Below are positions 4,090 to 52,700 of a stretch of 64,000 nucleotides of DNA, in pieces. Every line of letters begins with the position of its first letter. The first letter of the stretch is position 1. Source of the DNA: a virus (Duplodnaviria; Caudoviricetes); IMG/VR virus record IMGVR_UViG_3300021255_000136, positions 1-64,000 of that record. One strand, written 5' to 3'. Below the pieces are notes generated by a model. It was not told the origin of the DNA. It saw only the letters and a program-made list of their open reading frames with translations, and did not search any database. The position numbers and the translations under genes were made by a program.

Positions 4090-4138
4090 GACGGAAATAG
4101 GACAACACCTCCATAAAAATGTTGAGATCTGGACAATC

Positions 4139-5188: not shown

Positions 5189-5539
5189 TTATCTGTGTCT
5201 CTTCAGTACATCTGCAATATCAGCCAGGGTGTCTATGTCCTTCTCCTCCATGCCTCGTACTGTGATCATCAGACGGGTGGTGGCAGGAGATGGAGGATCA
5301 TTTTGTCCACTTGTGGTCAAAAGTCCGGTGAGTATATAGGACTGGGAGACTTGGTATATCTCGCAGAGTGCGGCCAGTTGTTTAGCCATAGGGGTACTTC
5401 TGTCCGCTTCATAATTAGCAAGAGTACTTCTGGGAACACCGGAAATAAATGATGCGTCTTCCTGCGTGAGCTTCATTAGTTTCCTTGCATTCTTTAATCT
5501 CTCGCCAATTGTACTGCCTTGTACTAACTCGTCGTGCAT
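5189..5539 (-). CDS. XRE-family HTH repressor (ImmR-like)
   Basis: IGERLKNARKLMKLTQEDA...STLANYEADRSTP; GAGGAGG SD before ATG 5539. Confidence 0.9.
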   Translation of the reverse strand: MHDELVQGSTIGERLKNARKLMKLTQEDASFISGVPRSTLANYEADRSTPMAKQLAALCEIYQVSQSYILTGLLTTSGQNDPPSPATTRLMITVRGMEEKDIDTLADIADVLKRHR

Positions 5540-5592
5540 CACTGGCCTCCTCTCTTGTAACAATAAAAAGTTGAAATGTAATCTTTTTGTTG

Positions 5593-5631
5593 TTGAGATC
5601 TGGACATTCCTCTGCTATAGTCTTGTCCAGA
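5593..5631 (+). promoter_or_regulatory. sigma-A promoter for the antirepressor with inverted TCTGGACA/TGTCCAGA operator halves
   Basis: TTGAGA-N17-TATAGT with extended TG; TCTGGACA 5599-5606 and TGTCCAGA 5624-5631. Confidence 0.7.
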
Positions 5632-5682
5632 GTCAAACATTAAATTGTTGTGCTCAGAACATTAGAGAAAGGAAAGTTTGGT

Positions 5683-6501
5683 ATGAAAAAAGAAACGGCA
5701 GCAAGCAACGACATCGCTATCACAACGATCCAAGGTGTTGATTGCTATGAAAGTAATGGGGTAGCTTATCTCCGTCTGGAGAATGTAGCTCGGGGTCTTG
5801 GGTTTACTCAGAAGCAGAAGATTAATGGGGAAACTTATGACAACATCCGCTGGGCTAGAGTGCGGCAGTACCTCGAGTCCTTCGGAGTTCTGAGCCCCGA
5901 AAGCGCTGATCCCTTTCCCGACTACATCCCCGAGAACATCTTCTATCGTCTGGCAATGAAGGCAAAGAACGCTACAGCAGAAGCGTTCCAGGCGAAGGTA
6001 GCAGACGAGATCATCCCCGCTATCAGACGGACCGGTAAGTATGAAGCGAACCAGTCAGTGTCCGATGCAGTAGAGATCTCCGGTCCATTCCTCAGGCAGC
6101 TGCGGGAGAGGAAGGGGTTGACGATAGTTGATGTGTCCAAAGCGACTGGGGTTAACTACTATAACCTCGCAGGATTTGAAAGAGGTAAAGACAAGAGGTA
6201 CTGTCTGTCCAAGCATAAGCGGCTGGTCGTGTACAACTACCTCATGTCTCTTCCGGATGCGACTCTTCCCCGTGTTACCTCAACCCCAGGTCGCAGCTAC
6301 GTTACCTCAGTTCGTAATGACCTGCTCCCGGTTGAGAGGCGCGATTATCCTGCTGGCAGAGTGTCAGTTGAGCAGATCCCCTTCACGATGGAGGAGTTCA
6401 ATGAGCTGATCAAGACGGCAGTAACGAATGCACTGGGTAAGGCTCTGTGTGATGCAATGACCCAGATCATTACTGAAGTACAGAACCGGAACCGTCAGTA
6501 A
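5683..6501 (+). CDS. Bro-N phage antirepressor fused to an XRE-type HTH
   Basis: YIPENIFYRLAMKAKNATAEAFQAKVADEIIPAIRRTGKY (Bro-N C-terminal motif), then LRQLRERKGLTIVDVSKATGV...FERG. Confidence 0.85.
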   Translation: MKKETAASNDIAITTIQGVDCYESNGVAYLRLENVARGLGFTQKQKINGETYDNIRWARVRQYLESFGVLSPESADPFPDYIPENIFYRLAMKAKNATAEAFQAKVADEIIPAIRRTGKYEANQSVSDAVEISGPFLRQLRERKGLTIVDVSKATGVNYYNLAGFERGKDKRYCLSKHKRLVVYNYLMSLPDATLPRVTSTPGRSYVTSVRNDLLPVERRDYPAGRVSVEQIPFTMEEFNELIKTAVTNALGKALCDAMTQIITEVQNRNRQ

Positions 6502-6845
6502 TCCGTAGGTGGCTTGGACTTCCGGAGAGCTTCGATGATAGCACGGGCCTGCTCCACTTCTTCCTTGGTTGCGCCTTGGAGAGTCTGGAGTAGAGCTCTG
6601 TGCTCCGGAGGTATGTTGTCCTCCAGGATATCATCAGTGTATCCGAGGAGGTAGTCCAGTGTGCAGTGGAAGTAATTCGCGATGGCCTTGAGCGTGTCGT
6701 ACCCAGGCTCCCGTCCGAGATTCTCCCAGCCATTGACAGTGCTGCGAGGGATATGCAAAGCTCTGGCTACGTCTTCCTGCGAACGGTGGGCATCTAGTCT
6801 TAGCTCTTTGAAAATGGTAGCGAAGTCTCTGTCATTCTTTCCCAT
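6495..6845 (-). CDS. second XRE-family repressor (CI-like)
   Basis: FKELRLDAHRSQEDVARALHIPRSTVNGWENLGREPGYDTLKAIANYFHCTLDYLLG; AAAGAGGTG SD. Confidence 0.9.
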   Translation of the reverse strand: MGKNDRDFATIFKELRLDAHRSQEDVARALHIPRSTVNGWENLGREPGYDTLKAIANYFHCTLDYLLGYTDDILEDNIPPEHRALLQTLQGATKEEVEQARAIIEALRKSKPPTDY

Positions 6846-6885
6846 TCGTAGCACCTCTTTCTTCAGATTATAATTAGATCATTAT

Positions 6886-7026
6886 TGACTCAAATAGTGT
6901 AACACGTACTGACTCAAAAAGCAACAACAAATTACAAAAAATTTAAAAAAGAAAGACTCAGAAAAGATCAAATTTCTTGTTGCTTTTTGAATCACCCTGT
7001 GCTATAGTATGACTCAGAACGAATCA
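6886..7026. promoter_or_regulatory. divergent control region with TGAYTC-N5-GARTCA operator sites and a rightward promoter
   Basis: Sites at 6886, 6910, 6978 (inverted) and 7010; TTGCTT-N17-TATAGT at 6980-7008. Confidence 0.7.
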
Positions 7027-7072
7027 AGCGATTGATCTCAACGAGAACAATCAGTGTGAAAGGACAAAAGCA

Positions 7073-7294
7073 ATGACAGTAATACAGGCGATACTCTTCG
7101 CGGTGCTAGGACTTGGAGCCGCAGCGTTCCTTGCCAGTAAGTACCGGAAGACGTACGAGTACATGAGCAACGACAGGTACTGGGAACCGAATGACTGGTA
7201 CCAGACCGAGCCGGGGATGAGCGATGACAGATTGTTCAAGTACCACAAGACCCAGATCCAGTACATCGATCCGAGCCAGACAGAGTGGAGGTAG
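7073..7294 (+). CDS. small membrane-anchored protein (73 aa)
   Basis: N-terminal hydrophobic helix VIQAILFAVLGLGAAAFLA; AAAGGA SD. Confidence 0.7.
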   Translation: MTVIQAILFAVLGLGAAAFLASKYRKTYEYMSNDRYWEPNDWYQTEPGMSDDRLFKYHKTQIQYIDPSQTEWR

Positions 7295-7297
7295 TGT

Positions 7298-7780
7298 ATG
7301 AATAAACCGGGCAGGCCTATTACAGCCGCAAATTACAAGCCAGCACATGACTACACCACTCCCCCTAACCAGATACGGAAGTACAGACTGAAGGCAGGAC
7401 TGTCACAGCAGCAGCTGGCGAACATGGTTGGGCTGTCGAGATGCGGGATAGCCAGTCTGGAGCGGAAGGGAAACAGGCCCCGTGACATGCAGATCATTAA
7501 GGCTATAGCCCTTGTGCTGAAAACTTCGGTGCCTGAGATCCTTGGTCTGGAGCAGGACACACCCTGGGTTGACTCCAACTTCTATCTTCCGAAGCGCGAC
7601 GGGTTCTACTTAGCAGCATTCAGACTGAAGTACAGCACAACACTCCGGTACCTTACCCTCTTCTTTGATGCACTGAACGGTGAGTGGAGATACCTCGATG
7701 GAGCCGGTGGTAAAACAGATGACCGCTTCAATGGCCACGTACTCTACTGGTCCGAGATAGAGAAGCCCATCGGAGAATAA
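7298..7780 (+). CDS. XRE/Cro-like HTH protein with a DUF551-like C-terminal domain
   Basis: IRKYRLKAGLSQQQLANMVGLSRCGIASLERKG; C-terminal WVD...LPKRDGFYL...W. Confidence 0.75.
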   Translation: MNKPGRPITAANYKPAHDYTTPPNQIRKYRLKAGLSQQQLANMVGLSRCGIASLERKGNRPRDMQIIKAIALVLKTSVPEILGLEQDTPWVDSNFYLPKRDGFYLAAFRLKYSTTLRYLTLFFDALNGEWRYLDGAGGKTDDRFNGHVLYWSEIEKPIGE

Positions 7781-8135
7781 GTTCTTTCCTCCTATTGATC
7801 CTGCTGGCCTCTGCCTTTTCTCCCTGCCCTTCGTAGTTCGTTGCTCAATAGAGCGAGATTGACTTTGGCCGGTCGATCGTTTAACCCTGCCTCCTGAACA
7901 TCCCTCCTTTCCTTTTTAAATATGTTGCCTTCATATACATTCCTTTCTGACTCTACCTCAACAGACTTTGATATGCAGAAGGGCAGCGAGAAGGGGCAGG
8001 GGTACAGCAGGATCTTGAAGAACTTTTCCACCGAGTTTATACCCTATCGGGATTGCGGGTTAAGAGGCGCGGATATGCACAAGAATGAATAAATGAATAA
8101 TTATTCATGCACTACGAATAGGATGAACACAACAT

Positions 8136-31752: not shown

Positions 31753-34700
31753 TTATTTGCGACGGTTGTTCGTGATCTTTTCGTAGTCCGACCAGTGCAT
31801 GTTGTAGTCGAGTTTTCTTCCGTTAGAGGAGGTGGCTCTTGAAGAACTGCTCTGGGCGGGTGTCGTGGTGGAACTCGCCTGGGTATTGGGCGGGATCACA
31901 AACGGAGTGGTCTGGGTGCCGGATGTTCCGAGATCTCTGGTGAAGTCCAGAGGCTGGCTCATCCAGCGGTTGAAGCCCCAGTTCGGATCTGCCTTATTGG
32001 CGCGATCCTGTTCGTCAGAAACCTTCCTGACGATGCCGAAGTCACGAGCCGTCTGGTTACCGGATGTGGACATACCGGACTTGTGCAGGCTTCCTTCGAA
32101 TGCGGATGCGATCCTGTCGATCATAGCCACTTCCTGATCATCAGTAAGATACTTGGAAGTGAACGCATCGAAGTTCTGCTCCATGTAGTCCATGTATGCT
32201 TCAACACGGTGTGCGCGTTCAACATAGCTGAGAGTGTTGTTCTTTACACTTGTACCGACTTTGCTGGTGTAGCGCTGTTGCAGGAGATCGAACTGCTCCT
32301 CTCTCGTCAGCTTGTCGTTGAACAGCATGGAGAAGAACACATCGTTGCGGCTTGCTGTAACGTCGCGCTTATCTTCATAAGGTATGCTGTTATCGATAAG
32401 CCACCTTGCGTACTTCCCTTCCTCAAGCTTGGCTACAGCATTGTCTAGATCACGGAGAGCACCGGCCTGTTCGTTGAAGGACAGAGCCTTGAATTCGGCG
32501 CTGTTCATCATCTGGATAGCTACATCGATGAATCGCTCCTGTTCATGTCTTGCTTCTGTGTTCTTCTGGTCTGTACTGAGTACCATCTTGTGCCCGATCT
32601 GATCCGGGTTGTCAATGCTGGACGCGCCAGTCATCTTCCCGGCCATCCACCTGACCTGCTCTTCAACAGTAGAGAAGTTGTCCAGCGCGATCTGGTATGC
32701 CTCGGTCCACTTGTATCCGGCCTTTACATCCGCCAGCGCTTCGACTGCGTACTCATCAGCGTCGTCTTCGATGAAGAAGTCTCCATCCTCTCCGGCCTGA
32801 TCAGCGGTCATAGTGAACTGCGTCTTCACCTGCCCGGTTGCAGACAGATTTCGTGCGAAGGCTTCTTCGACCTTAGATGCTGTCGCATTGAATCGGGCTG
32901 CTACTATGGCTTCCCTATCTTCCTCGGTCTCTGCCAGACGGTAGGCGCTGGAGTTCAGGGTTTCCGCATACTCCTTATCCCATGCAGCAGCGAATTCCTT
33001 ATCGAGGTCTCGCTTCTGTGCATCGGTGAGGTTAATGACGAAGCCCTTCTTGTCCGGGTTGTCGATCTTGCTCGGTACAGCATAACTGTCAGCGAGGTAA
33101 GCAGCCTGCTCTGCAACAGTTCCGTCCATGTTGATCGCGACATTGAACTTCTCCTTACCAGCCTGGGATGCTCTGCCAACTTCCATAGCCCTGCTGGAGT
33201 TGTCCAGTATCTCGCTGTACCTCTCCTTCGTAGTCTCACGAGCTCTGTTGTAGGCGTCGTTGATAAGATATCCGCGCTCACGATCATCGGCCTCAGCATA
33301 GTCCTGGCTGTTCTCCAGCTTACGCATCTCTGCTCTGATCTCTTCGTTGAAGATGTCCCGCATCGCCGCCTTGTCCTCATCGGTTATCTCATAGACATAC
33401 CCGACGTTGCCAACACTGGAGAGCTCTCTCGGAGGAGCGAACTCTGCTGACACCATGTCAGCTATCTGCTCGGTAGTAAGGCTCGGAGTTACGGCCAACA
33501 GCTGGAACAGATCGTCATTGGAGTAGGCATTGGGCAGGTTGTACTTCGTGGTGATGTAGTCTGCCGCACCAACCTTCAGTGCTGTCTGCTTGGTCATATC
33601 CAGTGCGTAGTGATCAGATACCGTGTGCCGTCCGAAGTCTTTAGCGATATCGAACGCCTGCTGCATCATAGCCAGCTTCCCTGCGTCGTCTGCCTGGATG
33701 TACACCGGATCGGTCATAACCTCGAAGCAGATCTGGTACGCAGCGCTACCGGCTACTTTCATCAGCTGTTCGAATTCTTCAGCCGTGAGATCCTTCAGCC
33801 CCTCATCCGTTTTGAAGCTCTTGGACAGTTGTTTCGGGATTATGCTGTTATCTCCGGTGGCCTCGTACAGTCTCATGAGCTCTGCGTCTACCGGAGTCTC
33901 GTTGATCACGTTGGCATAACCAGGCGACAGGAAGTTCTCCAGTGCTCTGAGGAACCAGCTGTCATTAGTATCCGTACGGCCCCACGCATCGACATATGCC
34001 ATCTTCTGACTTGCCCAGCCGGGTACCTTGCTCTGGATCGAGTTCTGAACGAACCGCTGCAGAGCTCCGGGCATCGGGCTGTTCTTATCCGTATAGGTCG
34101 CCCTTCTATCCGGGTCTGCCGTTCTGGCGATCTGGCCGAAGAATGTAGGCATACCCTGGGCGAAGTAGCTCGTGGTCATTGCCGCCAGCAAAGCGGAGAT
34201 ACCGTTGACATCAGAGCTGTAGGCCAGTGAGGACAGCGTGTTCTCGAAACCATCCAGCATGGACATTGCCAGCATAGGATCCGCAATACCCATCAGTGCT
34301 GTCCACAGATTGGACGGGGTACTGAGATCAACCTGGCCGCTGACGAGATTATAGATAGTCGCGCCTACGAACAGCGGCATCGACATCGGTGCCATCCAGT
34401 CCATAGTGTAGCTAACTTTCTTCCCGTCTACTGTAAACTCCACTGCCCAGTTCTGATGGCCTTGGAGTTTTTTCATCTTATCCTTATCATCGTCTCCGGT
34501 CCCGCCACCACGGAGTAATCCTGCGGAGGCAAGTAATGCACCGAGGATCATGACGCCGGTACCGGTAAGTCCAGCTGCCATGTTGTCAAGGATCTGCATG
34601 GTGTTGCCGTCGCCATTCTTCAGTGCCGCCTTCAGGTCAACCAGGGACTTGATGAATCCGGGGAGTGAATACTTAGCTGCGCCCAGTACGAGGATGTTGG

Positions 34701-37700
34701 CCGGGGTGCTGACGAACGGTAACAGTCCTTCCATCAGTACGTTGCCAATAGGTCCGGATGTACTCTTGAACCGGTTCAGTGCCATAGCGAAGGTGTTCAG
34801 CTCATGGTAGGTATCACGCTGGGCCTGCATCGTCGCGTACTGTCTGGCCTTGTTTAGCATCTCTCTGCCTTCTCTGGTGTTGAAGATCGTCGGTTCTTCA
34901 GAGTTCTCTTCGCCTACTTCCATAGCCTTCAGGAGATCTTCTTCAGATACGCCCTGAGCCTGTAGTGCTTCTGCCAGTGCTCTGACATAGTAGCGCTTCT
35001 GGAATGCGAAGTCAGATTTCTCCAGGAACTCGCCATTCTTCTTCGACAGTTTGTCAAGTGGAGCCCAGCCGAAGATGTCGCGCTTGTTCAGGATATCACT
35101 GATGTCGTTGAACTTGTTGCCAGTACGCTTGCCTGCTACGACGTCTTGCATAGTTGCGTAGTCGCGCTGTGCAAACCGGACATAGGTGTTGTCGGACTCT
35201 TTGCCAAACAAGCCTACCCAACCGGTAAGTTCAGCACCGGGTACGTGCATCTTGTACTCGGGGTCAATAATGCCGGGGATCTGTTCAAGACGTCGCAGGA
35301 TAAGATCTTTCATGAACACTGCGGGCATGAAAGCTGCATTACCAACGAAGTTCCTTATGTGGGTTCTCGGATTGCCTAGCATCGCCAGATATCTCCAAGC
35401 GTTCCACTTATCCATGATCGTTGCGGGGATCTGGTCAGCAATATCTTTCTTGATCAGTTCCATGATATCGCTGATCTCCTGACGGCTTGTTGCGGCCATC
35501 AGTCTCTCTGCCAGTTCCTGGTTCAGAGTGATACGCTGCATCTTGTTCTTCGGGTTTTCTATCCTCTTTGCATACGTTGCATTCAGGTGGTTGATAACAC
35601 CGTTGATGTAGTAGAGCTGGCCTTGCGGTGTCGCCTTCTTAATAATCGACATCGCCTGTACAGCCTGACCTAAGTTGGTACCCAGGATAGACAGATCGGC
35701 TGCTACCTTGACTGCCTTATCATAGGTGTTAGGATCAGAGCTGAATTCCTGGATGAGGAGTTCTGCCAGTGCGATCCACTCAGCTCTCGGCAGTTCACCA
35801 CTCTCGACCATTGCGCTGAATGTGTTCATTGCCTGATCGAAGTTGCCGTTGAAGCGATTTGAAAGAATGCTACGCGCCAGTCGGATAGACCTTGCGTTGG
35901 ACTGAGGGGTATATCCCAGCAGCTCATTTGTCATACCTTCATACAGCATGCGCTCGGTGAGGTGTTCGTTCTCGACGTTTGCCGCTACGGTCTGCATGTG
36001 CTTCCGCACAGCGGTGTTGTCAGCGGACTTCTTCGGGAGATGTACATCATCCTTCTTGTCGCCTCTACCTTTCGGGAGCTTGCCGTACTTCTTTATAGCG
36101 GAGTCGATTGCTTTGTGGAGTTGTTCCTTCTTCTCCTCGGTCAGGTCGTCGGCGTAGTCAACTACACCCTTCAACCGTTCAAAGCTGTCGGCCAGAGCCT
36201 GTGGTCCGTTCCGGTTGACATACTCGTTAACGATGTCCTCCAGCTTGAACGGGTCGTTCTGGTTGGCGTTGAGCAGGTAGTTGTACTCGAAGGAGTTGAT
36301 CGGGAACGTGTCCAGTGTGGTGATCTGCTGGCCGCTAGCGTTGCGGAAAGTGAAGGTCTGGTCTCCTGTTGCGTTCTCCCTCATCGGGTTCTCGAAGCCA
36401 ACGGAGAATTGTTTGCTTACACCTTCCTGCGCTTCACTCTGCGGTTGACTCTGTTCATACAGTTCTCCATTGTCTCCTGTGCGTCGAGATGTTCCTTCTT
36501 GATCCTGCGCAGGAACTTCTTCCGTTCCTCGTCGTAAGCCAGCATCCTGTTCACGGAGACGATATCCAGTATCGACATCCCGATTTGCAGGAGGTATTGT
36601 ATAAGGTTGCGTTGTGGTTCGGTCAGTACTGTTGGCATTGTTCATCGCCTCCAAATAATTGATGTATTGTGCTTCGGGGGAATCTCCTCCTACGTTCTCC
36701 ATGACCACCGTCTCACCAGAGTCGAGCTGGTAGTATGCGGTATCGTCGGAGTAGTACAGGTTCGGAGAAAGTTCGGACTGAGTAAGGTCTGTTGGGTTGG
36801 TGTTGGAGATTTCAACTTCATCGCCGAATGCGTCGTAGGCAGCATTGGGGTCGATGGAGAGGGAATAGCTACCAGCAACCCCCCAGGAATTTACGGTATT
36901 GAAAATTGCGTCTCTGGAGTACTTCGGCGCATTTCTCCGCCTACGTTCGGCTCCCCATTCCAATCTGCTTTGAACATCTCTGGCCTCGATTTCTCCGGCT
37001 GTATTCCTATAGAGATCGTAGTCGGAGTCATTTTTGTGAGACCGGTTCCTGCTCTGGGAAAGATCGTAGTTACTCAAGAAGTCTGCTACTTCGCCGAGAC
37101 CATACTCGCCTATCGCCCACAGGAGCTCTTTCTGATAGTCCTCGCGCTTTTTCTCATAGTATAGCTGGCCATTCTTCTGGAAATCCTGCAGCGTCAGATG
37201 AAGCATTTCGTTGCGGGTTTCTGCCATAGCATAGAGCCGATTCAAGCCATCTGCTGGGATGTACAGTTTCATGGCTTCTAAGGCTTTCTTTGCACGGTCC
37301 TTCGGTGTGTACGGCACTCGTTTCCCGTTTACGTCGATCTGGTCGTCCCAGGCTTCGAGATTTGAACCGCTCGCAAATCCTTCCATATACTGGATAGCGT
37401 GCTGTATTTCATGCATCAATGTACTGCGTACGTCTCTCTCGGCCTCTGATAAATACCCGACGAGGTCATCAAGAGCAATTGTGATCGTGAAGCTGGAGGG
37501 ATCAAATTCGCCGCGTACATTACTCGGCATTTCTGTGAAAACAACGGTATAGTTTTTAAGGTCAGGATAGTTAGCAAATAACATCCCGGCGTTTCTTAAA
37601 ACTTCTGGGAGCTTATACTCGGACCTGTAGTTTTCTGCGTTACCAAGAGAACTTTGTATAGCCGCGTTCCATTCCTGATCAAGTACAGCAGGACGTATGG

Positions 37701-40700
37701 TAAAGTCCTTATCATAGATCTCCCACTTCCATTTGCCGTCAACGCCACGGAACCATCCAGTATCTTTCCAGATTTCATCCCGGCTGTATCCAGCTATTTC
37801 CCTCTGCTCAGCTGATTCGAGTTTACCGAGATCAGCGCCTTTTGCAGCTGGGCCAGCGAGGCTAAATCTTTTCTCAATTCTGTCTACTTCATCGCGGACA
37901 GCTTGAGCGCTCTTCCGTTCTTTCTTTGCCGCATCTCTTTCAGCTTTAGTCTGATAAGAGTACGGGAACGGTTCAAGACCTGCCTCTTCACGAGCGGCGT
38001 TTACTTCAGAAAGATATTTTCTGTAGTTAGCTTCAGATAGCCCTGTACCAGTAAGGTCAATTGGAACGCCAACTTCCTGAAGAGCAGAGAGCAAACCGGA
38101 AGGTACAACATTGAAAGGCACACCAAGACCGGGTGCTTCCCTGTCGAGGATCTCCTTGTACTGCTGGGCAACTTCGATGTTGGACAGCTTACGTACCGGC
38201 ATGAGCCACCGAGAAAGATACACATGTCTTTGTGTGTTTTCTAACTGGCTTGCTAGGGAGCCGCTCTTCCAGTCGTGCATACCAACAGCATCTTTTGCAG
38301 TAACAATATCTCCGTCAGAACGAGTTGCCTTTTCAGGATCTGTTACACCGAAGTGATAGCCGCTGGTCAGCTCACTCTTTGGAATGGCGCACATATACGT
38401 TACCAGGTTGGGACGTTTGTACGCAATGGAGAACTGGTCATTGAGAACTACATCGCTAGAGTGCTGGTACGGGTTATACGCAGCCGGTACCACGGAACCA
38501 TCTACGTCGCTCTTCTCAAGTCCATAAGTCCAGGATACTTCACCGGTCTTGTCATTGACTTTCTTACCGAGGCTCTTGGAGTTTGGATTGCCTACTGACT
38601 CTTCCCACACCCCGGGACGGAGAGCATGCGATTGGCTCTTCTTGCCTGTCTCGTCTTTCTGCACACCGGCCATAGGAGCAATAAGATATGGATCTCCGTT
38701 CTCGTCTTCGTACTCAAGGAATGATTTGTATGTGTAAACCACATCACCGTTCTCGAGCTGATCGTTAAGGAAGTTCAGCGTATCTGGATCGGAAACAGCG
38801 ATGGAATACATCGGGTCCATGTCACGCTGTTCAGAAGTTTTATATCGGTCTATCCTTCTATTATCTTCATCAACAGCTTCGTTCTTAGCTGCTATCTGCT
38901 CGTCGTCGAGGAACTGGTTCGGTATATACTTCAAGAAATGCCCGTCCTGAGGATTGACATTTTTAAAGATATCTGCTATACTATATGTAGCTGATACCAG
39001 GGCCGATGCAGGAGTCTTAGATTCCTCCGTCCTCCCCGTGACGTCAGCTTTTATTTTTGCCAACGCGACGGTCATATACAATTTGCCTCCATCATTGGAG
39101 GTATTTTTTATTTCAAATTGTACTGGGACGAGGCTGTTCTCATCTTTGAAAACACTAAGTAAAACCTTTGTGTCTATTAGATTTCGGCTTTCTCGTTTCG
39201 TACCGGCGTATTTATCCGTATGCGCTTCAATTAGAACTGCCGAATTTAATAAGTCATCGATGTTGATTAGCGCTTTTGCAAAGTCTAAGTAAGTCCCGCC
39301 TGTTCTGAGTTGCTTGTGAAGACTCTCCCTTAAACCACCGTTTTTAGAAAACAGAAATTCGATTTCTACTTCAGGAGAGGATAAGGCCCGATTTAGTATT
39401 CCAAGCTTTTCTGCTAACGGATAAATGACTTTCTCCGCTCTGCTCTTGGCTATACTCTCTGCTTCCAGCTCGCTAAGTTCTTCTGCATAGTCCTGAGATT
39501 TTGTATCGACAACAGCAGTAATAGTACGGTCTTTAAGTTCCTCGTAGCGCTCATCTTCGGTCATCCCGGCAGATATAGAATACTGCTTATTGACACCCTC
39601 ACCGTCTTGTGGTATACTATTATTCGACGCTATGGGGTGCCGGGCGAACCAATCTTGGTTTTCGCCATTGAAGTCGATGTTCGGATTATTTCTGGATGTC
39701 GGCTGGAACGCGACTCCCACGGCGTTATTTTTTTGCATCATTGCATGGTACAAAATACTACGACCGTCATCAGCTTGCGCTATGCTCAGGATTACAGGAT
39801 ATATATTCTGCCTGTCCATGACGTAAGCTTTTCTATATTCAAATCCGTTCCTATCCATCCACTGGTGGTTCTCTCTCGGGTCGGTGTCCTGCTCGGAATA
39901 GCCCTCGAACTTGGAGATCTGCACTACTTCCGGAGCGTTGAGGTAGACCATACGAGTCGTGCGGTTCCTGCCTCTACCATACGTTAGCTCTGTCAGAGGA
40001 TGGTGCGCGTTGCCATGCTTTGATACGTCCTTATCTTTGGCATCTGCAAATACAATAGTCTCCGGTACGCCGTAGTCGGATACTGTTCCGATCTCCATAC
40101 CAGCGAAGTTATTCATAACGAAGTTATTAAACTCAGCGTTTCTGAAGTACCTGCTCTTGAGGTCAGTATCCATGTAGACAACTTCGTCATAGGTCTGGCC
40201 GTTAACGTCTACAACATTCTTTGCGACGGAGAACCGCATATCTCGATTACTATCATCAAATCTCTGAGACAGAGGAATAATATTGCCGTCGTCGTCATAT
40301 GTGACTGCGTCGGCTCTTTTTATATTCTCTGCGTTCAGCATGATGTAGGACTCGTTACCGGCGTCTTCCATCTCATTGATGTACCGGATGCTGTCGTAAC
40401 CCAGACCGAGTAAATACTTCTGTGCGGACAGGTTGGCGATTCTTCCGAGGTCATCGAGATCGTCGTCCGTCACTGCCGCGCCTTCAAATTCGCCCTCGTT
40501 GTACAGAGCATCCTGCCAGCGTTGCGCATCCGCTTCGTACTGGTCATACGCCTCGTTCCTTACCAGAGCCTCTTTGAGTTTCTTCGAGTTGGCCTTGGTC
40601 CACTTGGTATTAACAGCGCGTCTCGGAATGTACCCGTCCTCGATCCAGTCATCGACGTCGTCCATCATGTTCTTCAGGGCCATAGGATCGCCCCACACAT

Positions 40701-43700
40701 CCGGTGTACGGAGTGTGTTCTCCATCTTGAGATACACATCGTAGATGCCAGGGTTGTCACCGAGGTTGTTGTACAGGTTGTTGTAGAATGCCTCAGCTGC
40801 AGCTCGCGTACCGAAGTGAACACCAAGTTCGTTCGCAGATATCATACGGAATTCATTGAATCCGAATGACTGCGTACCGTGGAATGCTTCCTTCTTGTAC
40901 CCGGCTTTCTTCGCTGCCTTCTCTACCATAGCCTGCGCTGTTTCCATGTCGTCGCTCTTTACAGCGTCCATGTACTGCTGGTCGGATTTGCTCAGGCTGT
41001 ACTGCATACCGGGGTGCTGCTCCTTATACTGGGCAACGAACTTGTCTACGATACCGTGGGCGACCGGGAATACGTTCGGGTTCTCGTCGTAGCTGTTGAG
41101 CATACGATTGACCTGATCCATATTGAAGATAGGACGTACCGGCAGCTGGGGTGAACCGTTACCGTTGTTGTCGTACATCTTGAAGTCGATCAGGAGTTTC
41201 CAATACCCATCCGTGCTTCCGTCTTCCTTCAGGGAGTAAGATCCATCCTTATTATCAGTAAGGAACTTGTAGAACTTAGGCCTCTTACCATCCCTTGCAC
41301 ACATCCCGAGATACTTCTCCGCGTTCTCTTTCCCGGACTTACTGAAGTCCCAGTACTCGTTCGGCATGTAGTTCGTGCATTTGGTTGGGACGTCTCTACC
41401 CTGCCATTTGTGCGTGTGCTCTTTGGGATTAAGCCACTTCTCGTTCTGCTGGTATGTGTAGTCCTTTGTAGTAGCCGGAAGGCCCATAGCTTTGTACTGG
41501 GCTTTCTTCCACTGGCTGCGATGGAATGGAATAATAAAGTCGATCCGATCATCGGCCAGAGCAGCAAGCAGCTGGGCGTCATCATAGACGCAGCAGATCG
41601 TACCGACGTTCCTCGGGTATGCGTTCCTCAACTCCATAGCTGTGTCGAAGTTCATACCTTCTTTATTATTAAAGACTAATTTACCGTTCTCATCCACAGA
41701 CCATGCGTCAATACTCAGGTTGATCTTCAGCCCTGTATCGCCAAGCGCCCATGCGAAGTCAGGTACTTTCGTGTAGGCCTGACCCTGCAGTCCTACTCTA
41801 CTCATATCCGTTATCACTTGCATAGCATCTATGAGATGTACGATTTCAAAGTCTGAGAAACTTTGCATGCGGATACCGCCGTTCCGGTTCTTCTCCCGGA
41901 TCATATCAGCGTCTTCGAAATGCTGACGGATCTCGCCCTTGTACGCGCTTCTCATCTGGTACAGCTTCGGCTTCTGCTGACTTGCGAACAGGTTCTTGTC
42001 GCCCTTCCGTAACGTACCATAGTGGTTCCAGAAGTACTCGTACTCTTCATATACTTCCGGGTGGTTCTGCCGTACCCACTCAATACCGTCCGGTGTATTC
42101 ATCTGGGCCATGTTCGGTACCCACTCACCCGGATGATATTTCTCGTACAGCTTGAGGAACTCCTTGGTGAAGATGCCCATCGTAGCGCGTGAACCTTCGA
42201 CGTAGCATTTACCGCAGCTTACTTCGAGCCCGGCGTCGTCCATCATTGCCCTGATACTCAGAACATCGAACGGAGTCAGTACGGTATTCGGTAATGCGTT
42301 CTGGATAGCGCTGAACGTACCGGTGAGCAGTCTGCGTTTTTTGCACAGTGTGGTGAAGTCAAAGCTTCCGCCATACTCTGCATTGCTTACGAACGGAGAC
42401 TTGCCGGTGTCTTTATAGTCCAGACGGCCTTTGTCTTCAGCGATCATCTTGGCCACGCTGTTAACGTCATCAACCCACTTCTCAGCCTGTTCGTAAGTGA
42501 CACCGAGCTGTTCGACAAGCGCGGTGATGGCCTTCTCCCTGTCGGTTACGTAGTCGCTTGCGTTCCATGTAGATAGTGAATAAAGTTTATTGGCGCTGTC
42601 ACCGTTCGTCTCTATCTCGGATGCACCGGAGCTGAGTGAGAAGAACATCGAAAGATTGGACACATAGTTCTTCTTCGGGGATGCCGCCTTCTCTTTAATA
42701 TCCATAACGATGGACTCGGGGCTGGTGCTGAAGTCATAGAATGTGGTTCCGTATCCGCCGTTTATCTCAACCGTGAGCTTCGGATCTTTGGCCCATTGTG
42801 AAGAACCCGGCCAGTCCTTGTGCGAGAATACCCACTTAATATAATCGAGTAGCTTTTCACACTGCACATCGGTTAGCTCCGCGCCAGCAGACGCCTCGAT
42901 TGCCGGACCTTCTGCCGCGATACGGACATTGCCTCTCTCGATGAAGTCCGAGCGATAGTTATTGTTATCGGGTAGCAGCTTAACTCCTGATTGTTTATAA
43001 GCCTTTTCGACTGTACTGTGCGTAGCACCACCGGTCCGCATCCCGTTAGGGTTGTTCTTCATCCAAGTGCGCATTTCCTCCACTTCTTCTGCCGGTTCGC
43101 CCATTGCGAGCAAGCTGTCCATCTGCTGGTCAATACCGGAGAAGTCCAGCATATCGCCGTATGGTGTGATGTACCCGCCATAGCAAAAGTATGGTGTGGT
43201 TCCGAAGATCTCAGTGGCCGCGTCTACTACCTTGACTGTACTGGATCTGGTAGAATCTTTCCAATCGTCAACGGAAAGGCTGAAGAACATCGCAAACGGT
43301 GAGACGTACTTCCGTTTGAAAGAACCGTGCTCATAGTAGTAAGCGATCTCGTCTGTTATGTCATCCGCGCTCTGGCCCAGCTTGAATGTCTTGGACTCAG
43401 CATTGTTTCCGTTGTCGTCCATGATATCCACCATGAATGTATCGGAGCCATGTACGCGTCTGTTCTGCTGTGCCCACTCGATGTATTTCTCGATTGTGGC
43501 AAGCTGTTCAGTTGTCGGCGCTGTTGTTTTGAAGAGGTGAACACCCGGTGCTTCAGGCTGCATACGGATGTTGCCCTGCCTCATGAACTCCACCATGCCT
43601 TTATCCTGCATGTTGGTGCCGACGTCGATACCAACAGACTTATAGACATTAGCGATTTCACGATGGTCAACAGTACGGTTTTCCTGGAACTTTTCATACG

Positions 43701-46700
43701 TCTGACGGTCCTGAGGTCTGAGCTCATGGGAGCCGGAGAAGTTAAGCATCTGGCCCTGCGGAATAATGTATCCGCCGTGACGATAGTTAGAGGTGATACC
43801 GAACGTTCTGATCGATGCCATCTCTACCTTGCGCTCGTCTTCTGTAGCGTTCTCGTACCAGTCCTGAGCAGAGGAGATGCTGAACCGGAAGTCAGGATCA
43901 TTGGTCGGGTTTTTGTTGTCCGGGTCCTTGAACTGGTTGGACTCGAAGCCGACAACAATCGTGGCGAGCGTTCCGTCCAGAGTACCATCGTCTTTGCCAC
44001 CTACATCTTCAATGTTTCGGAAGATAACGCCGTCATAGCCATGAGCATGTGCCCAGTTTACAACGCCGTTAGTGGTCATAGTTCCCGGTATGTCTTCTCT
44101 AAACAGGAAATTCTCCTGCTGCTTCGGGTTTCCTATTCTCTCCAGATATGCCCGGATGCCGTCCTTATCGGAGAGTCTACTCCATATTCCGCCTTCAGCG
44201 TCATAGATATACGGATTCTTCAGATTCGCGTATAACGGTCTGTTGCCTCTGGTTGTGAAGTCCTCTACCGTCGGCGGTGCAAATTGTTGTGCCAGTTCGA
44301 TTGCGTCTTCTCTGGACACCATCTCGCCATCGAATTCGAATACGGACTCGTTATTCTCATAGGCGTCATACAGTTCGTCGTAGAGGTATTCAAAGTTATC
44401 GAGTTCTTCCTCGAGCTGGTTCATGATCTTGTCTATGAACCTCTTCAGCGATGGCGCGATTTCTGCAATCTCCGGAAGATGATCCCGTGCAATCTTAGCC
44501 TGCTCGATAACACCTTCGAAATAGTTATCGGCATCACCAGCCGCCGCCTCCATAAGATTCCGTATCCTTTGCGCTGCGTTTAGGAAATCCTTAGAATACG
44601 GGGCCAAAGCCATTAGTGTATCGAGACTGTGTGCGAGAGTATACAGGTTCTCTACATTGTCATACAGTTCGTTCTCGACAAATACTCGACCATAGCCGTC
44701 ACTGTACCCGGTCTCTTCCTCTGCCCTCTTAGCAAGGAAGTCGCCCAGCTCGTTGTCGTCCATTTCCTCTATACCCGGTACCTCAGTCATCTCACGCATG
44801 GGGTTAACCTCACGCATGGTACCTGAGTAAGATCCGGCTATACGAGGATCGTCCACCGCAAAGAAGCTCAGATGGTCTGCCGCCCACTGCGGGTCGAAGA
44901 TGTTCTGGGTGGCGTGTGTAATAGATCCGTGCCACAGCTTCAGCAACCGGCCCAGATTATCTCTGACTCTGGAGCCTTTGAAGTACTCCAGCTGACCTCT
45001 GGACAAGCTGGCACCTTGGTTGTCCTCAGCTACATTATCGCCGTCCATAGTTACCGGCTGGCTAAGACTGTACTGCTTGCCCTTCACGAAATCACTGTAG
45101 TCCTGCGTCTGGGCTGCTTCGGATGTAGCGTATTCTACCAGCTTGTTGTCCAGCTCGAACTTCTGGGCTAGGCGCTGGTATGTCGGCATATCGGACTGAA
45201 TAAGCGAGACACCATGCATCCACGACATTCTATCTATGCCATTTACTAGATCGGCGTACATCTCGTTGAGGACGGCCTGCTCGAATTCCTCTGGGGATTT
45301 ATTGGCATAGGCGTCTTTGTAAAGGCCGCTATAATAGTCGTAGAGCCGGTCGAACAGGGATTTCTTTCCTTTGAAGATTGCTCCTATCGCCTTCTTCAAA
45401 TACTTAGACCGTTCAGCGTCGTTGAGCTTCTTGAGCATCTCGTGGGATATCTCGTGGTGCGCATTCTTAATATCCCTGTTGACGTTAATGATCATGGTAT
45501 CCATGCCGTGATTATTAAAGACCACGCCATCAAACGGAGTTCTATTTATTACCTTTCCGTTCTCGTCACGGATCAAGCTGTATAGACCATCCGCGTCAAC
45601 AAAAAAGACCCGTTCTACGCCAGCGCTTTGTGCGCGGCGTACAGCAGATCTCTCCTCATTAGTAAGTACGGACTCGTCATCCGAGAAGGAATCGTAGACA
45701 ACGAAGCCGTGGTTATATTCTATTGTATCTCTCTTCTTCTCGCCTGACAGGTCGAGAAGAGTTGCGTTTACTCGTCGTCCCCGAAGATCTCGTCCATCAG
45801 AGCTTTCTTCCGCCCCTGATATTCCTTCTCCTCCTCCGCTGTTCTGGGCTTCGGATTCAGCGGATCCCACTTGCCCTGCTGATACAGTTCCAGCTGCTCC
45901 TGAGTCATCGGGATTGACGCTCCGTTCGGCAGGCGTACTATCATTCGGTCGAATATCATTATCTGTTCCTCCATGTCTGGATTGTAGTGTTGCAAGGTCT
46001 TCCTGTGCTGCAGCTAACTTACGCTCCACTTCCTGCAGACGTTCAGCGTTGCCTTTGGGATCATTATATATCCTGTCACGCTCTGATGTCAAGCTAGCTA
46101 TTTCACGCTGTGTGGACTCGACAGTAGCGCCGACATTAGGCACACGGAACGGTTGAGGTGCTGTCTGGGTCTTAGGCGCGGATTTCTTCGACGTGGATTT
46201 CTTGGGCTCGCTTTTTGTGCTCTTCGCCTTCTCTGCAGTCTTGTTCGACGCGGTACGGTCTGGTTTGGTAACGGTGATTCCGTACTCCACTTCCATTGTG
46301 CCAAATGTATCGTTGGCTGCACGGTCCATCATCATATCGAACTGGAGATGCGCCTCTTCTGCGGATTTGCCCTTCGACACCTCGCTCTCGACAAACTCAC
46401 GACGTGTCTTCCACGGGAATGACGGATTGAGACGTACCTTATCCTCCCAGCTTCTGGGATGGACTTCTCTGGCCCCGAGCTTCTTCTCCAGCTCCTCATC
46501 GAGGTTCTTTACCTTCTGCTCTTTGGGGTTCTTCGGCTTCTCTGTGGTATCCGCCTTGTCGCCCTTCTTCACGACTGCAGCGCCAGTGTCAGTACCCTCA
46601 GTCTTGGCCACCCAGTTTATAGCTGCGTTCTGTCCTGCGCCGTCGAGGATAAGTTTAAATTCTTTCGCCGCTACGTCCAGAGTAACATTAGAGTTCTGAG

Positions 46701-49700
46701 CGTGGCGCATATTATAATAAGAGTAGACATTGTAAGTCCTGCGCCCGATCTTTATCTGACGACCGGCCACATCCTTTGCACTCTGCGGTATAGACGCCTG
46801 ATAGGAAGCTATCCTGGTCTGCGGGTCCAGACGAGGTGCTGGCTGTGCCGCCTTGGACTCAGTCTTCGTCGTGGTCTTGGAGGACTGTACACGCGGTGCT
46901 CTATTCTCTGTAGCCGCACCTGGCATTGAAGTATTAGCCGGAGGGATAACGTCCATACGGAATGCTTCGATATTCGGGTTGTTCGTACCACCAAGCTGAG
47001 CCTGTTGTCTTGCCTGCATCAGCTGCGCAAGATTGTCATTTGCATGAACGGGTGTAGGAGTAGGACCATAGGAGCCTTGTGTATACCCCATGGACCTGTT
47101 CATCTGTTGCTGGCCACGATACTCGCGTTCGTTGTTCTGGCTAATACCCGCGCTTCTGGCTTCCCGCTGTTCAATGTTGGCATTAGCAAGACGGAAGAAT
47201 TTCCATGTGTTGTTCAGTACGTCGTTGATATCCCCGGTCTGGATAACCTTCAGGAGATCCTCAGACTGCTGGCCTACCGTATTAAGAATGTAGTTGTAGA
47301 TCGCATTCCTCGTATTGTAGTCCTTCATGAAGTCTTGCGCTGCGAACTCCTGTATGCTCTTATAAGTAATACGAGCAGAACCTTTGAGTATTCCTTCTAG
47401 GAAAGACTGTACATCCGCTGCTGTACCTGCATCCAGACCATATTTGTCATGGAGCGTGGTACCGATATCCGAAAGAACAATACTATTCGGATTTTGAGTC
47501 TTGGCATAGAGGTACGCCATAGACTCCGTATTCTGTCTGGCCTCGTGGTCAAACTCGTTAACAGCGTTGAAGAACCAGTTCGGCATGGTTTTGAACATAC
47601 CCTCGCCGTTCTCGAGGACAATAGCGTTGAACATACCCGGATCGAACTCACGAACCATAAGAGCCAGCTTACCGATATCTCTTGCAATATCTCCGGTCTT
47701 GGCCGTGTTGTTGGCCTGTTGTTGCTCCAGATACTTCAGTCGTGATGCGTCGTTCGGTCGGCTCTGGTTGTTCTTCATCCGCTCATAGATCTCTGCGATC
47801 TCGGCTTGGATTCTAGTACCGTTCTCAGCCACCGCCTGCATTCTACTGTTCCAGCGGTTACGGATGTCCTGAGCAAGTGATGTAATCTCTCTTGCCTGCT
47901 CGCCTTTGTCGAAACCTCTGTAGTCCGTCTCGCCGTTCCCTTCAGTCGGGCCCGGAGTAGGAGTACCTTCTGTGTGAGTTCGTGCAGTGGTTCCTTCTGT
48001 AGCGGTTTCTGTATCGGTGGTCGTGTCCTGCGGGTTCTGTACTCTAAGCGGCTCACCTTTCTGGGTATCGGCACTCGGTTCGCCATTCCGGGAAAGCTCG
48101 GTGCCGTCTACCGTAGACTGTTCCTGCTTGGTATCTTTGCCCACAGAGTATTGCTTGCCATTGCTGCTATCGGCCATCGCTGCCCTGTAGTCTTTTAGAT
48201 ACTGGCGGGCATCGTTTCTCTCAGTTTCTGCCTGCTGGCGCATAGTTTCAAAGTTGCCCATCGCTTCATCTACAAAGCTCTTGGTCTCCGAGTGTTTATT
48301 GAGCTCGTGGAGTACAAAGTCTATGCCGTACCATAGTGTGGCATAGTCGGTTTTTTCGCTTACTCCTTTTTTCCGGTTGCCCGCGTCACCGAGGTCAATA
48401 GTCGTCCCATCGCTGAAATTAATCCAAGCTTCGACGGCTACATCTGTAGGCGCCTTCGTGGCCTTATCAAGTCCGCCATTAAAATATTTCTTACGCTGCT
48501 TGTCTATTTCTTCTCGCGAGAACCCAGATTCTGCGAGAGCACGAAGATCGTATGGGGAATCAACATGAATTACCGTGCCGTCGGCAAGAGTCCATTCGTA
48601 ACCGAAGTTGTTCGAGTTAGTCCAGTGATCGACGTCTTTGGCTTGGTCCATCATACTGAACAGTGCGAAAGCATCTTTAGCGTCATTAAGCCGCGTAAAT
48701 TTATCGGATGCATTATACACATTATTCTGTGCTTCTTCTAGTCCCGCAATCCGTTCTGCTTTTGTCTTTCCGGTAAGATCAATTGGCTTCTTATCTTTAC
48801 CGGGAGCAGACGCGTCTTCTTTGCCGCTATTCTGCTGATCGTCAAATTGTTCCTTCGTGGGGATTACAGGTGTAGCAGGCGCCTCGTTTTGTTGCTCCGC
48901 TTCGGCAACTTCCGGTGCCTGCTCTGTAATCGGACTAGCAGGGGTCTGGTCTACTGATGCTGGCTCAACTGGGGCCGTGGCTTCTTCAGTCGTCGTTCCG
49001 GTTGTTTCACTTGTCGCGCCGGAGGTTACTGACGGGGCATCACTAGTATGCGCGAGAAGGTACTGCATCGCGTCATTGTATTTGCCGCGTACGTCGTTAA
49101 GTTTATTCTGTAGTTTTTCAACCGCTGAATCATACCAGCCATTTAGAATATCGGCGACATCTTTATTTGCATTTCCTATCTTCTCAATGGTCTGATCTAT
49201 TCCGTCTTCTTGTTTATAATTATAACTTGCGACGTACTCTGCCTGAGATTTAAATGTCTGTGTCTTTCCCTTTGCCCCCGCATTGAAACCGGTGATTGTT
49301 CCGTCTCCGTTGTATATAAACGCTCTCGGGAAGAGATGATGTTTATCCCCGTCTGCGAATTCAATGTGGATGTTCTTTCCGTTTGCAAGCTGTTTTTCAT
49401 AGGCCACGCCATTACCAAAGATTGTAGGTACCTTCTTACCCGTTCTTGCAATGGTAGAGAATATTGTCGCAGCTCTGCCATTCTGCTGCAGCTTCTCAAG
49501 CCTATCTTCAAGCCCTGTCTGTTCCTGATTCAGCTTGACAAGGTTGTCGTAGTTCTCGTTATATTTCTGCTGCTCTGGCGTTAGCTCTTCTTTTGTGACT
49601 TCGGGAGCGTTCTCCGATACTCCTTCTGCTTCAGAGCTTCCGTTCTTCACTTCAGCAGCAAGTCCAGCCTTAGCTGAACGGATCTGGTCAGCCATGTTCT

Positions 49701-52700
49701 TGATCGTACCAGTGAGCTCTATGCCGGTGATAGCTTTAAATGCATCACGCAGGCCTTGGTCTCTTGCGATCTCTCTGGCTTCCTTAATAGTAACAGAGTC
49801 CTGCTTCCTGTTGAGGATGGCCTTTACACGACTCTCTTCTTCAGTGTCGTCAGGAGATGACGGGAACTTACCGTTCTCATCAGCCTTTGCACGAGGTATA
49901 GCCAGAGGTTGCTGCTGTTCTGCTCTCTCTTCCCCGTGGCGATTCGGTGCTGGCCCTGTAGGTGTTGTGTTTGCGGGAGGAATAATTGCCGGTGCCTGAT
50001 TCTCCTCGGGAGTACTACCTTCCTGTGCAACCGGTGCTGCAGGAGCAGCGGGTGTTGCATTCGCAGGAGGAATAACTGCCGGTGTCTCAGGTGCTGCAGG
50101 AGCCGCGTTTTCAACTGTAGTCGTCTCCGTATCACCAGTGGTTTCTGACGGAGTATACCCAGCCTCTGCTGCGCGTTGTACAGCAGCAGCCACAGGTGTT
50201 ACGGGAGACTCGGCAGCGTACTGCATCATCACCGGGTCTTTGGAATGGTCTAGAACAGAGTTGGTAAAATCTATACCAAGACCGCTTTTCAGCATATCGT
50301 TACCGATCTGCCTGTACGTTTGGTTGGTCTTGCCTTCTCTTACGGCATTACCGAAGCCCATCAGTGCACCACTGGCAAAACTGTCTGTTACAATGTCAGC
50401 GAGTTTTTTCTTTTCTTCCTGCTTCAGGATATACTCGGCTTCTTCTGGAGTAATGTCAGATTCTTGAAGCAGTTCATTCTTTCTGGTGTGATACTCACTT
50501 CTCTCGCCTTCAATCCACTCCGCGATAGCATTTGTGAGTTTTTCTGTATTGAATTCTTCACTGGCCTCAACGAAGCCGGACGTAGACGTTTTTAATACGC
50601 CGTTAACTATATCGTTAAAGAGCCCGTTACTGGAGAGTTCAATATCCGGGATCTTATCGAATATGATATCAAGGGATACAGCTTCACTAAAGCCATCTGC
50701 AAAAGCACTGGCAAGAGCGTATTGGTTGGCTTTATTTACATCTCCGGTACGTGCAAACGATTCTTGGAATGCATTTGCATAAGAAGCGCCGCCATAAGCC
50801 AGTGTCGTATACCCCCAGGAAATAGCTTTTGCTGCGGCTTCTGTAGCCAGCGCGGGAGCTGCAACCCCGGCAACTGATGCAAGAGCGCCAGCCATGCCAA
50901 CAACGTATGTCGATTGCATAGCACTCTGTAAAGCTTTAGGCAATGTAGCCGCTGAAAGTGTAGTCTCACCGAAGAACGGGATATTAATATTTTTCTGCCA
51001 ATGTTCTCCCAGTTCGCCATAAAGCCCGGCATTAACAGCGTCCATAAGTTCCATAACAGTTGGATTAGCATAAATCGGAACTTCGCCGGTACGTTTGGCC
51101 TCATTATAAAATCCGATTGAATCAGTTATGCCAAAGCCTAGAGCTGTTGGTATACCGGTGACAAATATTGAGCCCAGCAGATATGCCGCTCCAGCCGCAT
51201 CGCCCCAGTTGCGCTTCCCGTCGAACAGATTACCGGCCATTGCTGCGGAGAAGTCCTGTACCGCTTTGACTCTGGCCTCATGCGTTTCACCGTCATGGAG
51301 TCTGTTCTGGTCCTTTGCATACTCGAGAGCCGTCTGCAGCTCACCGTTGCCGATGTAGTAGGCATAGGTCTGTAACTCAGTATAAGACCACGTATCATTC
51401 GGGAGTACGTTGCCTACACCGAAACGCGCTATGTACTGTTCCGCTTCTTTCTTCTGAGTATCGGTCAGTCCAGGGATGACATCCAACAAGCCAGTTACGC
51501 CCTTTAGTTGCTGCTGGTATGCCTGCTGCGCGTTTGGATTGATAGTATCTTGATCGATCCTCTTAGATCCGCGAATAGCCATAGCCAAGTCAGCGAATCG
51601 TTCACCGGCTTTTACTTTATCCTGATAATTCTTATCACGCTGGATATCTACGCCATAAACCCCGTGGCCTTGTTCGTCCACGCCGACCTGTACCTGAATA
51701 CCACGGAAAGATTTCTGATAGCCAAGCTCTTCGTTCTTCTGGTCGATGGCCTTCTGATACTCTGGATGTGCTGCGTCAAAATTTGTCCAGAGCGTATTGA
51801 GAGTGGACTCGTTACCGGATTCCCACCAACTCGAGTTAGGCTTATTTCCGTTGCCAAGAAGATAGTTAGCGTACTCTGTTATAGACTGGTTCAGTCTGGC
51901 GTCGTATTGTCCGGACGCCGCAGTATCAAGCAGATAGTTTGCAAAAGCCTGTTCTCTTTCACCAACCAGCCCGCGATTACCGGAAGCGTATTCCGGATAG
52001 GCTTTAAAGAAGTCCATGTCCAGCTGTTCCTGGAACCGACTATTAAGCCCCTTAGCATTTCCAAGTCCGTGCTCCTCTTTCCATTGCTCAGAGAAGTCGG
52101 TGTAATCCGCGTTCCAGTCATCCATGCTGTAGCCGAGTTCTGCTTTTGTCTGGGCAATTATATTCTCCAGACCACGGCCAGAGTTGTCGCTGATAAGGCC
52201 TATTGCCGAGTTGTAATAGTCACGGGCCTTCTGAGTTTGTAATTCATTCTGGAAGAACTTAGCTCTCTTGGTCTGCTCGTCTGTCAGCTTAGTATCGTCT
52301 TGAGAAGAACTATATTTCTTTTTCTCTTCCAGAACTGCTTTCTGCTGAGCAATCAGATCGTTATAGAGCTTTACGTTCTCGTCATTCGGATCTAGGACAT
52401 CATCTATCTGACTATCCAACGCAACGATCTGCTCGTCAAGTTCGTTATACTGTCGCGTCCAGTATGACTCATACAGGGTGTCGCTGATTTCGTTCTGAAG
52501 CTTATCTCTCGCAATGCGGGACTCGGTGAGCGTGTCGTATTTACCGAAATACTCTCCGGTTTCACGATAATGTTTGGCTGCTTCTGAACGGGACAAGTAC
52601 TGCCATTCGCCGTTCTCGTCTTTAACCATAGCCGGGACGTTGACATATTGCCCGTCGTCATAGACCATGTACGCATCGAAAGCATCTTCCAGCTCGATAT

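Follow-up and report, generated by a model that had tools for sequence, protein, structure and literature searches.

The nested reading frame and its relatives

The window analysed in this study is a stretch of 64,000 nucleotides (nt), positions 1 to 64,000 of the IMG/VR record IMGVR_UViG_3300021255_000136, and the source record is an 81,433-bp phage with direct terminal repeats. The minus strand of the window carries an uninterrupted open reading frame (ORF) of 7,763 codons at 31753..55044, which comes after tail-fibre and endolysin-like genes and encodes a virion protein of the polyvalent type. A much smaller ORF at 45768..45959 (minus strand, 63 codons plus TAA) lies inside this giant ORF and is the subject of the present work. 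It starts with ATG at 45959 and stops with TAA at 45770-45768. Its offset of 9085 nt from the start of the giant ORF (55044) places it in the +1 frame, where it spans residues 3029-3092 of the giant protein. The overlap is fully embedded: 45768-45959 lies wholly within 31753-55044, sharing its strand but not its frame.

The nested ORF has translation start signals of its own, judged by sequence. A Shine-Dalgarno (SD) motif, GGAGG, is located at 45968..45972 on the minus strand, 8 nt 5' of the nested ATG, and is read as Gly-Gly in frame 0. Another in-frame ATG, at 45974 and 15 nt upstream of the nested ATG, has no SD. The initial annotation had described a +1-frame ORF preceded by GGAGG, 8 nt ahead of ATG 45959; the same ORF was recovered here, and its product of 63 amino acids (aa) was identical to the sequence given there. 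The model and the sequence together suggest a layout of β-hairpin, short helix, WDP motif and acidic C-terminal helix. Predicted tryptic peptides of the product include LPNGASIPMTQEQLELYQQGK and WDPLNPK. Frame 0 across the nested gene is a linker rich in G, S, E and A (residues about 3029-3095), in agreement with the earlier description.

The 63-aa product was searched exhaustively with phmmer against 1.84 billion cluster representatives. The matches were P0004 (139 aa, expectation value (E) 2.3e-10, 56% identity), P0005 (63 aa, E 3.3e-6), P0007 (61 aa, E 1.3e-4) and P0008 (51 aa, E 2.5e-4). A profile search added P0009 (E 7.9e-20), at whose locus the tandem paralogue P0011 was found. A further copy, of 63 aa, came from a genome scan and belongs to an Oscillospiraceae metagenome-assembled genome (MAG) from roe-deer omasum. 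The family signature is M-x-H-Y-x-V-x-L-P-N-G, followed by L-E-x-Y-x-x-G-x-W-D-P and then by a charged helical tail. Between ten and twelve columns were invariant in the family comparisons, and ten are so in the seven family sequences: M1, L10, G13, M18, L23, Y26, G29, W31, D32 and P33. The AlphaFold2 model built from the seven-sequence alignment had a predicted local distance difference test score (pLDDT) of 76.8 and showed a compact hairpin-helix-helix, with two strands (residues 6-9 and 15-18) and two helices (residues 20-28 and 41-59). Two further candidate homologues whose scores were similar or higher, P0003 (1,533 aa, 23 stretches) and P0006, were rejected as tandem-repeat proteins that score by repetition.

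Other searches returned no relatives. The surrounding 2 kb of DNA and 800 aa had none in the phage and plasmid collections, and the word-indexed search with the 63-aa product alone also found none. The word-indexed search for giant-protein relatives of near length found only the giant protein itself, and tblastn gave no relatives for P0001 in phages or for P0009 in plasmids. A PDB sequence search with the small protein returned only coiled-coil noise from the tail of P0004, and TnpV (PF14198) had no match at E up to 10 among the seven family members.

Two of the homologues are themselves nested. P0005 is encoded at 6001-6192 of contig L002, inside an ORF at 693-7877 (2,394 aa), and P0007 at 6001-6186 of contig L003, inside an ORF at 1212-6881 (1,889 aa). 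In both, the small ORF is on the same strand as the large one and in its +1 frame. The two contigs are related to the window phage, and the gene preceding the giant ORF is common to them. BLASTP aligned the frame-0 module of the giant protein (residues 2864-3282) with residues 1566-1995 of the L002 protein and 1508-1845 of the L003 protein at about 29% identity, and the nested ORFs occupy the same aligned place of this homologous module in the window, L002 and L003. The initial annotation had held that a +1 frame broken in close relatives would speak against a gene. The results showed that both frames are open in all three nested loci, and that SD, ATG and stop are retained in each. All five other loci (L002-L006) have an SD (GGAG, AGGAG or AAGGAG) upstream of the ATG at a distance of 6-8 nt, and what the SD encodes in frame 0 varies between loci (HGG, RGR or RRS).

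The free-standing members of the family are carried by gut and rumen Bacillota, in elements that are integrative or encode a primase. P0004 has separately called genes on either side, and an NrS-1-type primase, a helix-turn-helix (HTH) protein and a sigma-70 region-4 protein are encoded nearby. P0009 and P0011 are adjacent to each other, and their element also encodes an integrase, ParA, an HTH_17 protein and a Toprim-DnaB primase-helicase. The Oscillospiraceae MAG copy is about 1 kb upstream of a primase-helicase of the NrS-1/D5 type. On contig L005, the tandem free-standing paralogues occupy 6615-6803 and 6900-7106 and have repeated upstream sequence. The family member is thus an independent gene in L005 (two in tandem), in L006 and in the contig of P0004. 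No giant-protein homologue was found in the fetched flanks of the L005 copies, and no HExxH module was found near the free-standing homologues within the fetched flanks. The reading equivalent to frame 0 is interrupted by 2 and 3 stops in the L005 copies, and it is stop-free across the small gene in two of the four free-standing copies, at L006 1067-1372 (+) and L004 2-271 (+). This open reading may be due to chance, to a compositional predisposition of the family to read-through, or to a trace of a nested past. The two proteins downstream of the L005 paralogues (562 aa and 371 aa) have no Pfam match.

Constraint on both frames and the candidate promoter

Conservation in the +1 frame was compared with a by-product null in which the frame-0 proteins were kept and synonymous codons were reshuffled, with 2,000 trials per pair among the three nested loci (n=3). 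The +1-frame identity was 0.51, 0.43 and 0.54, compared with 0.15-0.18±0.06 under the null, and it exceeded the trial maximum in every pair. Frame 0 therefore does not account for the conservation seen in +1. In the reverse test, the +1 protein was kept. Frame-0 identity was 0.41-0.44 compared with a predicted 0.21-0.25 (P 0.0005-0.0075), an excess that assumes saturated synonymous sites. The reverse test predicts an open frame 0 in at most 0.7% of trials, a null that is probably too strict, as two of the four free-standing copies are also open.

The pattern by codon position was also examined. Between nested and free-standing copies, identity at the third position of +1 codons was 0.23-0.43, compared with 0.54-0.69 at the first and 0.60-0.66 at the second. 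A variable third position is the ordinary signature of protein coding in the +1 frame. Between nested copies, identity at the third +1 position was 0.60-0.66, which is a sign of double constraint. As a control, all stop-to-stop segments of the giant gene in +1 and +2 were compared with the corresponding segments of the big ORFs of L002 and L003. There were only two significant matches: the nested ORF at 45768-45959 (E about 2e-13 to both) and a second nested ORF (E 1e-41), which is described below.

A candidate promoter, TTGACA-18 nt-TATAAT, is located at 46063..46092 on the minus strand (-35 at 46092-46087, -10 at 46068-46063) and agrees with the consensus at 12 of 12 positions. It lies about 104 nt upstream of the nested ATG. 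The predicted transcript start is near 46056, which would give a leader of about 97 nt, and the nested SD-ATG is the first credible start past that point. It is the sole perfect TTGACA-N16-18-TATAAT in the 64-kb window, where 0.03 would be expected. In the whole genome, there were seven sites at 11/12 compared with 1.3 expected, and 12/12 was reached only at the candidate promoter. The homologous codons of L002 read TTGACA-18-TATACT (11/12). TTGACA encodes an invariant Leu-Thr in frame 0 in the three loci; TTG makes up 5-14% of the Leu codons of these genes, so that TTG-ACA has an expected frequency of 1.5%, 1.5% and 4.1% at the respective loci. The hexamers, a spacing within 16-18 nt and conservation in relatives are those of a sigma-70/sigma-A promoter as far as sequence can tell, and we believe that the nested gene probably has a promoter of its own. 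The sequence past the nested gene contains no terminator-like site, which fits a position within an ORF that needs read-through.

Other sites at 11/12 were found at genome positions 76929, 77881 and 78594, past the end of the window, and at 4737 (-), near a repeat array at about 4.1-4.7 kb. Their clustering fits the use of host-type promoters by the phage for early genes.

Competing explanations, origin and known systems

Taking the homologues, the two-frame comparisons and the conserved start signals together, we consider it highly probable that 45768-45959(-) is a genuine gene in the +1 frame, that the same stretch of about 190 nt encodes a disordered frame-0 linker, and that selection maintains both. 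The stretch very likely encodes two proteins, and translation of the nested one very probably begins at its own SD-ATG. In this scheme, 30S subunits would initiate at GGAGG-8 nt-ATG independently of the ribosomes in frame 0. The nested gene would also be transcribed from its own host-type promoter at 46092-46063, and with such a promoter its product could precede the late giant mRNA or be independent of it.

A silent relic is the alternative that survives best. The small gene would have been engulfed when its neighbours fused and would now be no more than unexpressed linker-coding DNA. The free-standing homologues do suggest that the small gene predates nesting. However, a silent relic would decay, and the flanks of the nested loci are about 30% identical, yet the start, SD, stop and invariant residues are kept in all three. 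The +1 identity is beyond anything that frame-0 selection produces, and the promoter hexamers are kept against codon bias. We consider a silent relic very unlikely.

Programmed frameshifting is still less probable. Ribosomes on the giant ORF would shift to +1 near the GGAGG and produce a truncated protein of about 3,030 aa with a 63-aa tail, with no independent initiation. SD-like sequences stimulate programmed frameshifts in prfB and dnaX, and a +1 shift would lead into the nested frame, which shares the strand. However, there is no slippery or stop-codon shift site between the GGAGG and the ATG. The free-standing members begin with Met at the aligned position with the same SD spacing, and a promoter lies just upstream. 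Together, these findings make a frameshift product a highly improbable source of the 63-aa sequence.

Several results weigh against a genuine nested gene, in addition to the limits of the reverse test given above. The length of the ORF is not beyond chance: the giant gene has 13 ATG-started +1 ORFs of at least 63 aa, compared with 9.5±2.6 in synonymous-codon shuffles in which the giant protein was kept, and the nested stretch was without a +1 stop in 16% of synonymous shuffles. No model of Pfam, PHROGs or NCBIfam covers the small protein; the searches returned only coiled-coil noise from the long P0004 tail. Foldseek of the small-protein model against PDB and BFVD gave nothing at E 0.001 or below, the best Z in a wide VIA-align comparison was 2.2, and ESM Atlas gave no usable match. 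The known family consists of only three nested loci and five free-standing copies. When the modules of the window, L002 and L003, and the alignment of all three, were used to scan IMG/VR and the JGI metagenomes, no relatives were found. A scan of viruses and an initial scan of genomes with the alignment of the small protein were likewise negative. At the promoter, the spacer is 18 nt, and in L003, which retains TTGACA, the -10 is weak (TACAAA).

The first of these results bear on the possibility of a chance ORF, in which a +1 frame that happens to be stop-poor in a Gly/Glu-rich linker, with a GGAGG formed by two Gly codons, encodes no protein at all. The +1 frame of the giant gene is indeed stop-poor. 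The length of the ORF and an SD derived from two Gly codons are insufficient alone to call a gene, and it is homology and conservation that make the case for non-randomness. A chance ORF leaves unexplained the homologues at E 2e-10, the free-standing members, a +1 identity three times the by-product level, and the ATG, SD and stop kept in three lineages. It could be argued that the family matches are themselves nested ORFs miscalled as genes, which is excluded by the contexts of L005, L006 and P0004. We give a chance ORF almost no weight. The same very low standing applies to a nucleic-acid element (promoter, RNA structure or recombination site) as the cause of conservation in place of a second protein: a conserved promoter-like site does lie nearby and the second nested ORF shows conservation in all three frames, with high nucleotide identity, but there is no unusual RNA fold around the nested start (z = 0.46), the third +1 position varies against the free-standing copies as in protein-coding sequence, and those copies share the protein and not its context. 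Overall, each of the four alternatives is contradicted by at least two independent results.

The initial annotation implied that the small gene had been overprinted on the giant one. The direction was probably the reverse. Only the +1 product has free-standing relatives, and the frame-0 reading is of low complexity and looks younger, which makes engulfment the likelier history. The small gene would then be the older reading, and the giant ORF would later have been read through it, with its out-of-frame reading serving as a linker. The opposite course, in which a nested gene escaped and became free-standing, we grade as less likely. A wider proposal is that the giant gene engulfed an older free-standing gene which is still expressed early, from a consensus promoter inside a late virion gene, and that engulfment is a general route of domain accretion. 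We hold this proposal only tentatively, as possible rather than probable.

With regard to function, our best guess for the 63-aa product is an autonomous role, as a small accessory protein that mobile elements carry and that affects a process of the host or the element. The product could instead be a chaperone or inhibitor of the adjacent HExxH domain, which we consider unlikely and less likely than the autonomous role. The free-standing copies are without an HExxH domain in their readable flanks, and this weakly favours autonomy and gives no support to the partner genes suggested in the initial annotation.

The arrangement resembles that of the lambda genes Rz and Rz1. The inner gene of this pair is fully contained in the outer one. 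It is read in +1 from the same strand and has a start and a ribosome-binding site of its own, and both genes are functional. The nested gene in the window is likewise wholly internal, on the same strand and in +1, with its own SD-ATG as read from the sequence. There are also differences. The products of Rz and Rz1 work as two subunits of a single machine, and the overlap falls in a structured part of Rz. Here, in contrast, the outer frame encodes a low-complexity linker in a protein of 7,763 aa, and the inner gene has free-standing homologues in unrelated elements and a candidate promoter. Small out-of-frame genes inside very large multidomain genes are also represented by comS inside srfAB of Bacillus subtilis and by mobB inside mobA/repB of RSF1010. 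comS is expressed from the srf transcript and is restricted to its lineage, whereas the gene described here has a conserved internal consensus promoter and a family with free-standing members.

Long same-strand overlaps with demonstrable selection in both frames are rare in large-genome phages. To our knowledge, gene callers never report long same-strand overlaps. The callers behind the public assemblies gave the small ORF or pieces, and never both genes. The gene lists of the L002 and L003 assemblies contain the small nested ORFs and omit the big ORFs.

The giant gene resembles the polyvalent proteins described by Iyer et al. 2017 (PMC5512222) in that it is a giant multidomain gene with LPD23 at the end of a virion operon. 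LPD23 (E 4.9e-18, residues 1845-1900 of the second half) is the sole Pfam match in the 7,763 aa; the product fits the polyvalent proteins as a giant multidomain phage protein with a polyvalent-associated domain. Most of its domains match no Pfam model, and the larger part of the protein belongs to no recognisable family. The text of Iyer et al. 2017 (PMC5512222) does not contain 'overlapping', 'frameshift' or 'linker', and where 'nested' occurs, a hairpin fold is meant. The polyvalent concept as described there (PMC5512222) does not include a second layer of coding in linkers, and our literature search found no published description of genes nested in the linkers of polyvalent genes. The suggestion of the initial annotation that such linkers hold overprinted genes holds for this giant gene, in which both nested ORFs are conserved.

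These findings suggest that giant polyvalent genes may arise when neighbouring genes fuse across one that stood between them and that, read out of frame, then provides a flexible tether, and that the 'linkers' of polyvalent proteins merit a systematic search for hidden genes. If engulfment of small genes as linkers is a general mode of domain accretion, polyvalent genes would conceal a layer of small proteins that annotations miss. An active internal promoter would mean that a small gene of the early type is expressed within a late structural gene, which would be an unusual regulatory layout. The system is also tractable. A free-standing family is available for comparison, and the promoter and ribosome-binding site are conserved. 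In addition, the change AAT to AAC at 45960-45958 is silent in frame 0 and destroys the nested start (ATG to ACG).

The second nested frame and neighbouring domains

The second nested ORF is located at 36417-36638 on the minus strand. It encodes 73 aa in the +1 frame, with GGAGG 9 nt before its ATG. Its counterpart at 10670-10891 (+) of L002 also encodes 73 aa in +1, and its SD and start are identical. Between the two, identity was 75-77% in +1 and 58% in frame 0, compared with a by-product null of 0.25 (maximum 0.42). The product has no match in Pfam or PHROGs, and no promoter-like site was found upstream of the ORF on its strand. One giant gene holds two unrelated nested genes.

In frame 0, the part of the module upstream of the first nested gene (45973..46455, minus strand) consists of a small N-terminal region and a predicted coiled-coil-like stretch, in which the promoter hexamers are embedded. 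The domain directly downstream of the nested gene (45199..45726, minus strand) carries HEISH at 45456-45442 (residue 3197). H91, E92 and H95 are invariant in the three-sequence alignment of this domain, and the HExxH lies on a predicted helix (AlphaFold2 pLDDT 77.9). The top rows of its Foldseek comparison were zincins (ZMPSTE24, HtpX, IrrE and lethal factor), with weak scores (E 0.18 or more), and VIA-align gave Z values of 5.3 or less without a clear zincin. On the invariant HExxH and these weak fold matches, the domain may be zincin-like.

The initial annotation placed the nested ORF ahead of the HEISH module, and it does lie about 105 residues before HEISH. The accompanying claim that both nested ORFs flank one metallopeptidase-like domain did not stand. 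There are two different HExxH motifs, about 2,700 residues apart, and the other nested ORF (residues 6136-6209) lies about 260 residues after the second of them. This second motif, HEIQH, is at residue 5878 of the giant protein (window 37413).

The counterparts of the single 7,763-codon ORF are split into at least two large ORFs in the related contigs, at 693-7877 and 7825-12192 in L002 and at 1212-6881 and 6872-12184 in L003. The split in L003 is uncertain, as a masked run of N (about 6760-6870) stands just ahead of the junction.

The giant gene also contains two near-consensus promoters in antisense orientation, at 38954-38982 and 39590-39618 (+). Both read TTGACA-17-TATACT with an extended -10 TG and agree with the consensus at 11 of 12 positions. 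They are followed on the plus strand by ORFs of 112 aa (38954-39292) and 126 aa (39607-39987), neither of which has a Pfam or PHROG match. Both promoters sit in an AT-richer stretch of the giant gene.

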